The position numbers and the translations under genes were made by a program. DNA of 64,000 nucleotides from Terriglobia bacterium (GTDB lineage Bacteria; Acidobacteriota; Terriglobia; JAJPHL01; JAPKYU01): contig CBDCVK010000010.1 in NCBI GenBank assembly GCA_965223005.1, positions 544,001 through 608,000 of the forward strand. The letters are read 5' to 3'. Shown piece by piece: positions 29,957-60,208 of the stretch (position 1 is its first letter; every line of letters starts with the position of its first letter). The notes beneath the pieces were generated by a model. That model saw nothing but the letters and a program-made list of their open reading frames with translations, did no database searches and was not told the origin of the DNA.

Positions 29957-30030
29957 TGCCTGGTCGTTCAATGGTAGGACGCAGGACTTTGGATCCTGTT
30001 ATGGAGGTTCGAATCCTCCCCAGGCAGCCA
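29957..30030 (+). tRNA. tRNA-Gln (TTG)
   Basis: Cloverleaf: acceptor tgcctgg/ccaggca, anticodon arm cagga-ctTTGga-tcctg, GGTTCGAATCC T-arm, encoded CCA. Confidence 0.95.
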
Positions 30031-55494: not shown

Positions 55495-56112
55495 TTACTT
55501 TGGAAACTTCGGGTCCGCCATGACCTCCTCGATTTGCTTGTTGTGCCGCTGGTTGTGCAATGCCGCGAAGCGAATCCAGTGTGCGGCGCTGAGTTGACCC
55601 AAAGGCGTACCGCTGTCGTCGACATGCGCCTTGTAGGCCTTCGAGCCGTTCTTGGCGCGTTCGATCATTCTCGATCTTGCGGCCGAGTACTTGTTGACGA
55701 TCTCGTCGCGGCTCATTTTGCCTTGGGGTACGAACTCAGGCGGCGCTTGAACGCGGTTGGTGCGGTCTGGAATGACCTGGGTCATGAGTTGGATCTTGCC
55801 CTCAGTCAGCTTCCCCCAATCGGGGTTGGGCTTGCCGGCCATCAGCCCGTCCACGCGTTTGTGGAATCCGGTCTCGGTCAAGTAAAGGTGCTCAACAACC
55901 TCACCGGCCGACCACCGGTCCGGGCCTGGCTTGAACTTCCACTGCTCGTCGGTGAGTGGGGCGATCTTGGTCAGAGTGCCGCCACGGCTTTCCTGCAGCA
56001 GAGCAACAACCTCGGCGCTTTCTTGCGCGGAAAAGCTGCCGTCCCCGCCGGGGGAACCCGCGAGCAGAAGGGCGGAAGCAATGAGCGAAACGACGAACTT
56101 CATGCGAGTCAT
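55495..56112 (-). CDS. DinB family protein with N-terminal signal peptide
   Basis: WSAGEVVEHL and HNQRH His triad; hydrophobic N-terminus. Confidence 0.85.
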   Translation of the reverse strand: MTRMKFVVSLIASALLLAGSPGGDGSFSAQESAEVVALLQESRGGTLTKIAPLTDEQWKFKPGPDRWSAGEVVEHLYLTETGFHKRVDGLMAGKPNPDWGKLTEGKIQLMTQVIPDRTNRVQAPPEFVPQGKMSRDEIVNKYSAARSRMIERAKNGSKAYKAHVDDSGTPLGQLSAAHWIRFAALHNQRHNKQIEEVMADPKFPK

Positions 56113-56285: not shown

Positions 56286-56741
56286 GTGTCTCGCCAAGGT
56301 GAGCCAAACAGGCGGTCGAGGTGTCCGGTGAACGTCTCTGTGGAGATCTTTGGCGATAGCTGGTCCTTGTTAGTGATTCGGGACCTTATGTTCAGGGGGG
56401 CGCACTCCTTCAAGGATCTAATGGGTGGAGGCGAAGGAATCTCCACCAACATCCTCACAGATCGCCTTGAGCAACTCGTGGCCCACGGGATTGTCGAGAA
56501 GGTCCAGCGGGCGGCGGACCGCCGTCAGAACATCTACCAGCTTACAGAGAAAGGCATCGACTTGGTGCCTGTACTATTGGAAATGGCCCTTTGGGGAGCC
56601 CGCTACGAAGAAACGGATGCTCCGACAGCTGTGATTCGAGAGATGGAATCGAACCGCGATGACTTCCTGGTGAAAGTTAGGAAAAAGTGGGAGGAGGACC
56701 GTAGGCGTCTCGATGCCGAGGCTTCGGATGATCAAAGATGA
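56286..56741 (+). CDS. HxlR/DUF24 family winged-helix regulator
   Basis: RSRCPV..GDSWSLLVIRDL, ISTNILTDRL, YQLTEKG. Confidence 0.9.
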   Translation: MSRQGEPNRRSRCPVNVSVEIFGDSWSLLVIRDLMFRGAHSFKDLMGGGEGISTNILTDRLEQLVAHGIVEKVQRAADRRQNIYQLTEKGIDLVPVLLEMALWGARYEETDAPTAVIREMESNRDDFLVKVRKKWEEDRRRLDAEASDDQR

Positions 56742-57050: not shown

Positions 57051-60014
57051 CTATGGCCCGTCGCTGGCTTGGTTGCCGGCCAGCGCAGAGAAGCGGCGGC
57101 GGGTCTCCTCGGACCAGCCGGGAATCACTTCGGCCACCGTTCCCCCCGCGTTGAGCAGAACCGACAGAGGCACGGAGAGTTCGTCGGAAGCATACAGCTG
57201 TTCGACGGCCGGAATCCCACCGATATAGATCGGATAGCGGACGCCGGTGTCGGCCACAAACCCGCGGACGTTGGCGTCGGCTTCGGTGTCCACATTGAGG
57301 CCGATCAAGTCGACCCCTCCGGCTGAAAGCTTGGGGCGGAGTTTTTCCAGCTCCGGCATCTCCAGGATGCAGGGCGCGCACCAAGTGGCCCAGACATTGA
57401 TCAGCGCCCGGCGGCCCGGGCGAAGCTGTTTGTAGAGGGAAGTTGCCTCTCCGTCCAATGTCTTCAGCGCCAGATCGGGCATGGGGCGGCCGACGCTGAT
57501 CTTCAGCTTGCGCGCAAAGGTTTCGGCGCGAGTGAGCGGATCGGGCAGTTGGGCGCGGCCGAGGGCAAGCGTTTCGGCGCGACCGGCGCCGGCACGCAGC
57601 AGCAGCGTCGAGCCGGCCCGGGCGTCGGCCTGGAAACGCTCGACTTCCCCATTGGGCCAGGTCACCTCGATCCATTCGGCGCGCTCCTCCGATCCCAGCC
57701 CGAACAGCAGGCGCGGGTCGTGCTGCGCAATGAAGCCTGAGCCGCCGCTTTTGACTTTGGTCACCGTGCCCGCCGAAGTGCGCAGTCGCACAACCGCGCC
57801 ATAGGCGTCGCGCCCCAGCGCGGGGCTGCCTTCCAGCACGATCCGCAGGAAATGGTTGGCCTGCCCGATATTGTTGCGAAACAGCAGGTGTGCTTCCCCC
57901 TGGATGGTGGTTAGAAACACGTCCAGATCGCCGTCGTTATCGAAATCGGCAAACACCGCCGCGCGGCCATCGCTAATCGAGTCAATTCCAGAGATTCCGG
58001 AGACGTCCAAATACTTGCCCGTGCCCAGGTTCAGGGAGAGCAGATCGCGTTCGTACCCGCTAAATGAGAATCCCTGTTGGGCGATCAGGCGCATTTGGTC
58101 GGCACGGAGCGCGCCCTGCCCCTGTTTCGGATTCTTGTCTTGCGCCACGACCTGACGCCAGAACTGACTTCAGGTGTCCTTCATGGAACTGCCGGAGAGG
58201 AACCCATTGGGGGTCAGCAGATCCTCCCAGCCATCGTTATCGAAGTCGAGGAACCCACCCCCCCAGGCCCATCCGCCGGAGAAGCCAGCGCTCTCGGCGG
58301 TCACGTCCCGGTAGTAGCCGTTGCCGGCGTTCCGATACAGGTTGTTGCCCGAGGCCAGCTTCCGGTACACGTTGTTCCCGGCGCCAGCGCCGGGAAACAG
58401 CCGCGACACGATGCGGTTGCCTGCGGTCGAGGACATGTTGGTGACGTGCAGATCGAGCTCTCCGTCGTTGTCGTAATCGCCGAAGGAGACGCCCATGCCG
58501 TTGCCGGGGTCCACGACGCCGCGCTCCCGTGCCTCGTTCACGAACTTGTCCCCGTGGTGGATGAACAGGGCGTTTTCACCAAAGTCGTTGGCCACATAGA
58601 GGTCCAGGCGCCCGTCTCTGTTGACGTCGGCGAAGGCGGCCGCGTAACTCCAGCGCCGCTCGTCCACGCCCCAGCGGGCCGCCTCCTCGCGAAAGGTGCC
58701 ATCGCCCTGATTGATGTACAGCAGGTTCGGCGTGCCGTTGGTGGCCCGGTACCAGGAATCTGGCGTTACCCGGCCGAAGTGGTTGTAGCAGGCAACGTAG
58801 ATGTCGGCATATCCGTCGCCGTTCACGTCTCCGGCCACGGCGCTGAACCCAATCGCCTGCCGGCCTACCCCGGCCTTCCAGGAAACATCGCGAAGTTCCA
58901 GTTTCCCGTCCGGCACCTGCCGGTTCTCCAAAAGCATCTGGTGCCCAACCGAGGAGAGGAACACGTCGGAATCGCCGTCATTGTCGTAATCGAGAACCAG
59001 GGGGGCCACCCCGCGGTCGAGCAGCTCCACGCCCGCTTCCAGGGAGGCGTCACGGAACCGGCCTTGTGCGTCGTTCAAATAAAGATAGTTGCGATCCGGC
59101 GAGGTCACGAACAGATCGATCCAGCCGTCAAGATTGAAATCCCCGGCCGCCGCCCCGTACCAGGCGAAGCTGGGTCCTCCCCGCTCCGCAAAAGCAGGCA
59201 GGCTGGCGGCCACGCCGGCCGGCACGGAGACTTCCGAGAACAGATCGGTAGTGGCCAGCATGGAATCCAGGCTCAGCAACTCGAACGATTCAAACTGCCA
59301 GCGCCCGCTGGCCGCCCGACGGACCGCGATCGCCGCCGCTCCCCGCGTCCATTCGCGCCGCCCGTTAGTGTCTCGGCCTACCAGGTAAAACTTCAGGCGC
59401 GCCGTTCCTTCGGAACCCACCTTGGCGGTGGGAACATTGGCCTCCATCTCAACATCAGCCGAATCAGCGAATTGGGCTCCCGCCACCTTGAAGCGCGCGT
59501 CTTCGATCGCCTCGAAGTGATCCAGGAAGGCGAATAACGCACCCAAGAACTCCTCCCCGGTCATGCTGTGTTTCACCTCGCGGGAGCGGTCGTTGCGTTG
59601 CGAGGAGTGGCGGGGACCCTGAGCATCCGCCGTCCATCCATGCCTGGCGACCCATCTCACTTCTTTCTGGACCGGCAGCGGAGTGGACCAGAAGGGGGTA
59701 GCCGACAACTGGGCGGGAACGTACTCGACCACTTGGTGCTGGTCCCGATCCCGCACGGCGAGTGACAGATCCAACATGTCGTTGGCCAACGATTCGGACA
59801 ACTCCTCTACCACTTCCAGCCGCGCCGCATCCGCCGTTGCATCCGTCGTTGGATCCGTGGTTCCGGCGCGCTTGGGAGCCGAGGCCGCGGGCGTTTCGCC
59901 CTGCGCCGAATCGGCCGGCGCCGCCGGGGGCTGCGCCGCTGGCTTCTGCGCAAACAAGATCGCTGCCAGGAGCAGGCAAATCAGGAAGATTGTTGATTGT
60001 CCCAGCTTGTTCAT
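57051..60014 (-). CDS. Predicted secreted selenoprotein: N-terminal domain + FG-GAP/CRTAC1 propeller + ASPIC/UnbV + TlpA-like thioredoxin (UGA at codon 615 read as Sec)
   Basis: ORFs 58170-60059 and 57051-58148 are in one frame, separated only by TGA; DxDxDG repeats on both sides; LLFGLG..IEVTWPNG ASPIC motif; WATWCAPC; SECIS-like hairpin after the UGA. Confidence 0.75.
58137..58169 (-). ncRNA. Bacterial SECIS-like hairpin
   Basis: UGA-AGUCAGUUCUG-GCGUCA-GGUCG-UGGCGC; 6-bp stem starts after an 11-nt spacer, loop begins GGU. Confidence 0.65.
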
Positions 60015-60208
60015 GCTGATTTCGTAATAATACTGCGCGCCGTCCAAGGCTGCTGCCAAGCCAGGCTTGAACGCCTCGGCATTGCTCCCACCAGAAGCTG
60101 CCAGCCCGAAGCCTGACGCTTCAGGCTCTTTTCTCAGTTTACTCTGGTTTCAGCACTTCCCGCGCGGCATTTCACGAGATGAAAACAAGAGTGACAAAAG
60201 ACTGCGGG

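Follow-up and report, generated by a model that had tools for sequence, protein, structure and literature searches.

When a reading frame halts at a TGA codon and the same frame runs on beyond it, does the codon separate two genes, or is it read as an amino acid within one? The question is raised by a minus-strand locus in the 64,000-nucleotide stretch of a Terriglobia bacterium analysed here (contig CBDCVK010000010.1, positions 544,001–608,000; called the window below), where an open reading frame (ORF) at 58170–60059 ends ...NGFLSGSSMKDT at the TGA 58170–58172 and a further ORF in the same frame occupies 57051–58148. A preliminary description of this DNA had taken the two for one secreted protein with selenocysteine (Sec) at residue 615. 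This proposal is supported by the conservation of the TGA, a covarying hairpin behind it, the Sec machinery and the existence of cysteine (Cys) forms, and judging from these comparisons the TGA is very probably a real Sec codon in a single secreted protein of 987 residues.

The in-frame TGA and its conservation

Translation of 57051–60014 with TGA read as Sec (U) gave 987 residues and a TAG stop, with U615 (KDT-U-SQFW) as the sole recoded codon, confirming that the frame continues past 58170–58172 as a single frame of about 987 amino acids. We describe the locus as one gene of 987 codons on the minus strand (57054–60014, with the TAG at 57051–57053) that is read through a TGA at codon 615, on the ground that homology is continuous across this TGA. 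The UGA codon itself (58170–58172, minus strand; context KDT-U-SQFWRQVV) is proposed to encode Sec, as relatives carry TGA in the same alignment column. The open frame alone has little weight, because the GC-rich DNA here has many long spurious ORFs; homology past the stop and in the same frame was found in every relative examined, which is beyond chance. The DFDNDG calcium-loop motifs that had been noticed on either side of the break were located at residues 590–595 and 690–695.

The codon is also real in independent data. Contigs of two public runs from two studies, one of which may be the source sample, cover the TGA without any difference (X1 record 2, 57913–58256; X4 record 25, 58066–58256), and four near-identical protein clusters that stem from other assemblies (96–100% identity; P0047 and P0049–P0051) also end ...SMKDT. 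Among the variant positions listed in the public-run contigs, 31 of 40 fall on third codon positions of the frame, on both sides of the TGA, as expected when the two halves of the gene are constrained as coding sequence in a single frame. Parts of the stretch are also covered by contigs of the metatranscriptome libraries X18 and X19, and record 9 of X18, from a strain about 95% alike, spans the TGA; they were not counted as evidence of expression because such libraries may contain DNA. Moreover, TGA is an ordinary stop as well, closing 26 of the 47 long open frames in the window and ending 16 of 42 of these same TGA-form genes, so that no change of genetic code lies behind the in-frame TGA.

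A six-frame search with stops read through covered 401 genomes from the phylum to which the window belongs. Of these, 130 contain a relative at E ≤ 1e-30, and among the matches listed 61 genomes had a match with one TGA (one of these carriers, G049, is flagged unpublished). We fetched 43 TGA-flagged loci, comprising 30 orthologues (47–61% identity) and 13 diverged paralogues (29–41% over the site region). All 43 have TGA at the homologous codon (30/30 and 13/13), directly followed in each of them by S/T-x-F/L-W-R-x-V-V. In addition, a pattern scan of named genome records found the TGA form in 17 among the 80 loci listed, a sample of at least 80 loci and no census, in which 40 of the 80 were without an alignment spanning the site; among the loci listed the TGA forms reach into Planctomycetota, Verrucomicrobiota and Gemmatimonadota, with records labelled Planctomycetota, Phycisphaerae, Pirellulaceae, Roseibacillus, Akkermansiaceae, Verrucomicrobiales and Gemmatimonadetes. 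Neither TAA nor TAG was seen at the site in the 43 fetched loci or in the 80 pattern-scan loci listed, and Trp (TGG) was absent from it among the sampled forms. The aligned codon in homologues, which the preliminary description had suggested tabulating, is therefore TGA in all fetched TGA-flagged loci and in the 17 from the scan.

The alternation of TGA with Cys that the same description had regarded as a mark of Sec was recovered only in part. Cys does occupy the site in three clusters (P0002, P0012 and P0015), and the proteins with Cys, Ser or another residue there run full length in one chain; most non-Sec relatives are variable at this position, and the alternation is weak. In 25 fetched non-TGA relatives the residue is E, N, S, A, G, D, Q, Y or L. 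The expectation that annotation would split the gene was met in the public record, where relatives are named "VCBS repeat-containing protein" or "FG-GAP repeat domain-containing protein" and annotated as ending at the TGA, with products of 572–582 residues. In fact, 67 of the best 120 protein clusters end exactly at ...DT, which has the appearance of a conserved stop obeyed by gene callers.

The hairpin, the selenocysteine machinery and competing readings

Directly behind the codon lies a hairpin resembling a selenocysteine insertion sequence (SECIS), at 58142–58158 on the minus strand and within codons W619–A624. Its stem is GCGUCA / UGGCGC plus a closing G-C pair, its apical loop is GGUCG, and the stem begins 11–12 nucleotides (nt) and the loop 17 nt after the UGA; in bacterial SECIS elements the distance from UGA to loop follows a rule of 16–37 nt. 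Across 40 TGA forms 84.1% of the cells of the 7-pair helix, in which alignment columns 14–20 face columns 26–32, are paired, a value reached by 0 of 500 shuffles, in a statistic that relatedness inflates. As a control, 24 non-TGA relatives encoding the same xFWRxVV peptide are 51.2% paired, which was reached by 258 of 500 shuffles. Pair 18–28, joining the Arg wobble base to the first base of the codon that follows V-V, occurs in the TGA forms as six types (CG 22, UA 5, GC 2, GU 2, AU 1 and UG 1) and is unpaired in 15 of the 24 non-TGA relatives. The median folding energy of a 33-nt window is −13.1 kcal/mol in 43 TGA forms versus −9.3 kcal/mol in 25 non-TGA forms (Mann-Whitney p = 6e-6). The diverged TGA forms L064–L066, L105, L106, L126 and L153 have different stems at the same place. 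These alignments point to a conserved hairpin of SECIS geometry after the UGA, which covaries only in the TGA forms. At its gathering thresholds Rfam gave no match to a SECIS-type model in the window, which says nothing about bacterial SECIS; its only match there is a tRNA at 29957–30027 on the plus strand (64.7 bits).

The genome is equipped to read such a signal. The selA, selB, selC and selD genes, whose presence the preliminary description had proposed as a check, were all found above cut-offs, with 551 bits for selA, 341 for selB, 357 for selD and 78.5 for the tRNA-Sec (anticodon TCA), which lies at C10:520416–520506, about 23.5 kb before the start of the window. The selD gene (G000:C10:916629–917552, locus L010) has itself one in-frame TGA of Sec type (...VKASG-U-ASKLSPK...), and its hairpin GUCCAAA-GGU-UUUGGAC (7 bp) starts 13 nt after that UGA, with the GGU loop 20 nt after. 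The same genome probably encodes a further selenoprotein, a formate-dehydrogenase-like molybdopterin enzyme at G000:C10:1379084–1380370, whose match includes one in-frame TGA and, at 85.5 bits, stays under the TIGR01553 cut-off. Over the whole sample, evidence of Sec machinery was found in 61 of 61 carrier genomes and selA in 57 of them. Such co-occurrence is a weak test, because selA is common in the phylum sample (301 of 401 genomes). It is also worth recording that in two genomes of one genus selA lies downstream of the orthologue on the same strand, at 458 nt in G021 (C1:1153788–1158321) and about 3.8 kb in G175 (C9:30909–38751); selA adjoining the orthologue was not seen in genera other than theirs.

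Several observations weigh against a Sec codon at this site. Cys homologues are rare: of the 53 listed clusters ending elsewhere than at the site 3 have Cys, and of the 25 fetched non-TGA loci none. In most non-Sec relatives the position is variable (S, E, N, A, G, D, R or another residue); the residue is hence not essential to the fold or to all members of the family. No selA was found in 4 of the 61 carriers, namely G230, G318 and G081 (95–99% complete) and G255 (69%), where no match exceeded 43 bits. These four have selB above cut-off and a tRNA-Sec of 68–76 bits, and an assembly gap or a divergent Sec synthase could account for the missing gene. As for the hairpin, besides the inflation of the shuffle statistics, the window sequence alone (86 nt around the UGA) folds no better than its shuffles (z = 0.09), and its minimum-energy hairpin, which includes the UGA itself, was dropped as it is not conserved in relatives. 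The W-R-Q-V-V-A codons are near-palindromic by nature, and some non-Sec relatives form equally stable hairpins (L075 −12.1, L080 −14.0 and L084 −17.8 kcal/mol). Finally, many non-Sec relatives also have the C-terminal redoxin domain described below (matches to query residue ~966), from which it follows that this domain has work beyond Sec.

Could the TGA then separate two true genes, a secreted 614-residue propeller fragment and a second protein that starts a few codons on, for example at the GTG 58146–58148, by coupling or re-initiation? Standard ORF calling does yield exactly two ORFs, the GTG lies 8 codons past the TGA where GUG codons are conserved, and public annotations cut the relatives (572–582 residues) at this very point. 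Yet the junction is TGA in 60 of 60 TGA-form loci (43 fetched and 17 among the pattern-scan loci listed), with no spacer or frame change in any relative. Moreover, the conserved S-x-F-W-R begins directly after the stop, ahead of any start codon, and the conserved GUG codons sit within the covarying hairpin. The downstream part has no signal peptide, yet a single continuous fold takes its final propeller blade and its UnbV domain from it, and the Cys, Ser and other full-length forms are made as one polypeptide. Two separate genes are thus extremely improbable.

Reading the UGA as something other than Sec, through a near-cognate tRNA (Trp or Cys) or leaky termination at a residue-tolerant site, encounters a different difficulty: a stop is costly, and its conservation across lineages at 29–61% identity calls for positive selection on something that UGA alone can provide. 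The tolerance of relatives for many residues and the four carriers without selA would be in line with such readthrough, which is nonetheless highly improbable, as the SECIS-geometry hairpin covaries in TGA forms only, all 61 carriers give evidence of Sec machinery and no sampled form has Trp (TGG). A pseudogene, or a TGA created by sequencing or assembly error, has nothing in its favour beyond the stop codon itself and the comparisons refute it: the codon reads the same in public runs of two studies, two runs in all, near-identical clusters end at the same residue, 59 other loci have the same codon, and the variants are mostly at third codon positions on both sides. Its likelihood is practically nil. 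A Sec codon within one gene is accordingly the reading adopted in what follows.

Architecture, proposed role and evolution

The predicted protein, all of whose segments are encoded on the minus strand, would begin with a probable signal peptide (residues 1–23, MNKLGQSTIFLICLLLAAILFAQ; 59946–60014), read from the sequence and matching a helix at 7–21 in an AlphaFold2 (AF2) model. This model was built from 35 sequences, with a predicted local distance difference test (pLDDT) score of 88.6 and a predicted template modelling score of 0.87. A low-confidence or disordered linker (residues 20–58) leads to an N-terminal alpha+beta domain (residues 59–262; 59229–59840), modelled as a helix at 59–88 followed by a beta sheet with pLDDT >90, for which no Pfam family match was found. 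Then comes an FG-GAP beta-propeller with Dx[DN]xDG loops (residues ~280–715; 57870–59177), modelled strands of which span 288–714. Pfam assigns FG-GAP_3 to six stretches (E 1.3e-41, 141.5 bits against a cut-off of 26.9), with repeats on both sides of the break, and in the model the propeller runs on through residue 615. The propeller houses Sec615, which is the first residue of a helix: DSSP on the model delimits a two-helix insert between propeller blades (615–627 and 635–647; 58074–58172), and Sec615 opens its first helix. A UnbV_ASPIC domain follows (residues 737–797; 57624–57806; Pfam E 4.2e-14, 52.6 bits against 23.4), and the protein closes with a TlpA/ResA-like thioredoxin-fold domain identified by Pfam and by structure matches (residues 841–942, the fold extending to ~980; 57189–57494), which scores above the Pfam cut-offs for both Redoxin (60.1 bits) and AhpC-TSA (53.6 bits). 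It contains the redox motif WCAPC, with C879 and C882 (57369–57380), the proposed resolving and recycling thiols for Sec615. The only other Cys residues of the protein are C13 and C409, the latter replaced in several of the orthologue translations that were read.

On this layout a mechanism may be outlined. SelB with Sec-tRNA(Sec) would recognise the short hairpin, with its G-U apical loop, 11–12 nt past the UGA, Sec would be inserted at 615, and translation would go on to the TAG at 57051–57053. Redox nucleophiles are usually found in this position, as a selenol at the N-terminus of a helix. With slightly less than even confidence we propose that Sec615 is the redox-active nucleophile in an oxidoreductase outside the cytoplasm, and that the fused CxxC domain resolves it and is itself re-reduced via a CcdA/DsbD-type protein. 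The activity might be that of a peroxide- or sulfoxide-type reductase or of a thiol-selenol exchanger, peroxide or sulfoxide as substrate being a guess. Sec615 would be oxidised or thiolated in turnover, the CxxC domain would resolve the selenenic or selenylsulfide form, and this domain would in turn be re-reduced from the membrane; the genome has one DsbD_TM/CcdA-type gene.

The CxxC domain is present in 41 of the 43 TGA forms. The two without it, L064 and L065, for which Pfam gives FG-GAP and UnbV only, both read U-x-C, and so does L153 (a Planctomycetaceae record), which has 201 residues past Sec before its stop and no CxxC. More generally, all complete U-S/T forms have the redoxin domain and the U-x-C forms do not. 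In these relatives the Cys two residues after Sec may act as the resolving residue, and it is because this Cys appears where the redoxin domain is missing that the CxxC is proposed as the resolver of Sec615. Some diverged TGA-form paralogues (L054, L059–L062 and relatives, with frames of 1100–1500 aa) have a long C-terminal TPR region after the redoxin domain, and this long form coexists with the 930–990-residue form in some genomes, e.g. G148, G088, G170, G200 and G260.

The main rival for function leaves the selenoprotein in place and gives Sec615 another task, as a soft-metal (Cu, Hg, Zn) ligand or sensor or as a persulfide or selenide carrier, with the TlpA-like domain keeping it reduced. 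TlpA keeps the Cu-site cysteines of ScoI and CoxB reduced. The C-terminal domain has TlpA-substrate complexes (4txo, 4txv) among its fold matches, some of the catalogued selenoproteins bind metals (PMC13188914 Table 1), and the site is dispensable in many relatives. Nonetheless, no His/Cys/Met cluster is conserved together with Sec, the only conserved Cys being the CxxC pair, and the U-x-C of the redoxin-less forms is a classic redox pair. We consider such a role unlikely, and the redox role set out above is the one carried forward.

The history of the site was followed on a quick maximum-likelihood tree of 109 sequences and 350 columns, with the site masked and L065 and L106 counted as TGA forms; L071 has Asp at the site. 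The 60 TGA forms are scattered over almost all major clades on either side of the midpoint, which requires at least 11 changes between Sec and non-Sec, and well-supported branches leave no way round 9 of these. Inside the TGA clade to which the window belongs lie the Cys form P0002 and three Ser forms, P0002 being sister to a TGA form with 99% support in the Shimodaira–Hasegawa-like approximate likelihood ratio test. On this effectively unrooted tree repeated loss of Sec seems more likely than gain, though the near-palindromic W-R-Q-V-V-A codons could also ease a regain of Sec at the site. Three non-TGA loci, L075 and L080 (G086 and G146, one genus) and L084, have Glu or Asp at the site and keep a stable hairpin at the SECIS position, that of L075 (GCGCCA-GGUCG-UGGCGC) being the same as in TGA forms. 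These hairpins could be relics of a recent Sec loss or merely reflect the near-palindromic WRQVVA codons.

More tentatively still, Sec may be the ancestral catalytic residue of extracytoplasmic selenoenzymes that form a class not recognised so far, with a CRTAC1-like propeller as scaffold. The class would span four or more phyla, mainly of aerobic bacteria from soil and sea, and Sec would have been lost at least nine times to residues other than Cys, the W-R-Q-V-V-A codons providing a ready-made proto-SECIS by which Sec is unusually easily held or regained. We hold this broader picture to be possible and rather doubtful. If it is true, the protein could be a main reason why many of these genomes keep the Sec machinery, and it would give a first chemical clue, a redox one, to the role of ASPIC/UnbV/CRTAC1-type propellers.

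The neighbourhood adds little to these proposals. Clustering of all open frames flanking 43 loci (mostly some 1.5 kb per side) brought up shadow frames of the gene and nothing else, no neighbour family recurring in more than about 5 loci. The adjoining genes in the window encode a DinB_2 protein, an HxlR regulator and a glycine dehydrogenase subunit, none of them evidently linked to it. Directly downstream lie the DinB_2 protein, which looks secreted (55495–56112, minus strand), and the divergent HxlR-type regulator (56286–56741, plus strand); DinB-fold proteins are often thiol-dependent enzymes.

If the Sec codon is accepted, annotation pipelines routinely split or truncate a widespread selenoprotein, a new fold, the beta-propeller, joins the selenoproteome, and the function of bacterial ASPIC/UnbV/CRTAC1-like proteins becomes testable through one residue and one fused redox domain. 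A family would also be added to lineages with few reported selenoproteins, Table 2 of a 2006 survey counting 3 families and 4 selenoproteins for Acidobacteria (PMC1794560). Moreover, a blind spot becomes visible in discovery methods that need Cys/Sec pairs, a limit that the deep-Sep paper states itself (PMC12013277): such searches may have missed the family because most of the other relatives are variable at the site.

Comparison with known systems

The closest known relative by fold and by sequence is CRTAC1. The murine protein (9etn_A), likewise a propeller with UnbV_ASPIC, is the best structural match (E 4.6e-29, template modelling score 0.73 on the target), and CRTAC1 is also the best sequence match of the window protein (E 5.2e-28), with aligned parts at 368–535 and 682–798. 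It differs in that the Sec insert (615–647) is not aligned by sequence and that the bacterial protein adds the N-terminal alpha/beta and the TlpA-like domains. Our literature search found no report of a Sec or redox role for CRTAC1, and looking for a paper on its structure yielded nothing useful about function.

The C-terminal domain is akin to TlpA, ResA and CcmG in fold and sequence (ResA 4nmu, E 9.5e-17; TlpA 1jfu, E 7.5e-16), with WCxPC conserved, whereas here it is a fused domain and scores well below the NCBIfam cut-offs (ResA 72.3 against 170 bits, TlpA 61 against 230). Fusions of this kind have a precedent in the PilB-type proteins of Neisseria, in which periplasmic MsrA/MsrB are joined to a TlpA-like recycling domain fed by DsbD. 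The proposed logic is the same, in that a catalytic domain outside the cytoplasm has one nucleophile, placed where a helix begins, and a fused TlpA-like CxxC domain as its regenerator, although the catalytic fold is unrelated. The U-S-x-F-W of our protein loosely resembles the G-C-F-W motif of MsrA, which is a lead only.

Selenoproteins of TlpA type are already catalogued, namely a UGC-containing TlpA family, a ResA-like WAxxUGC family (NF041054) and a redoxin with UxxC (PMC13188914 Table 1). They are likewise extracytoplasmic, of thioredoxin fold and Sec-containing (PMC13188914), but in them Sec replaces a Cys of the redox motif, whereas the window protein retains WCAPC and has its Sec about 265 residues upstream, in the propeller; against NF041054 it scores 38.6 bits, with a cut-off of 300. 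Whether the present family had been catalogued was left in doubt by the preliminary description, and it appeared in none of the lists consulted. NCBIfam (June 2026 release) gave no family-level match, only TlpA-type domain matches below cut-offs, and the 119 prokaryotic selenoprotein families in Table 1 of a 2026 review (PMC13188914) include no such entry. In full-text literature searches nothing relevant joined selenoprotein or selenocysteine to FG-GAP, CRTAC1, ASPIC or VCBS, nor to UnbV, which was searched in bioRxiv from 2019 onward only. The main texts of that review, of BSepDB (PMC13326102) and of deep-Sep (PMC12013277) are without FG-GAP, ASPIC, CRTAC or VCBS, and those of the first two are without "propeller".

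With the canonical bacterial selenoproteins FdhF and SelD the gene shares the in-frame UGA, the hairpin at 11–12 nt with its G-U apical loop and the full machinery, and its UGA-hairpin layout is the same as that of selD in its own genome. Unlike in those proteins, Sec lies in a propeller insert, away from any thioredoxin fold or metal centre, and Cys homologues are rare, relatives mostly carrying unrelated residues. As far as these sequences tell, the gene appears to represent a new family of selenoproteins, recoded in the ordinary way, and the family is an unusual one, with Sec in a propeller, rare Cys homologues and a wide distribution in Acidobacteriota-like genomes and three other phyla.

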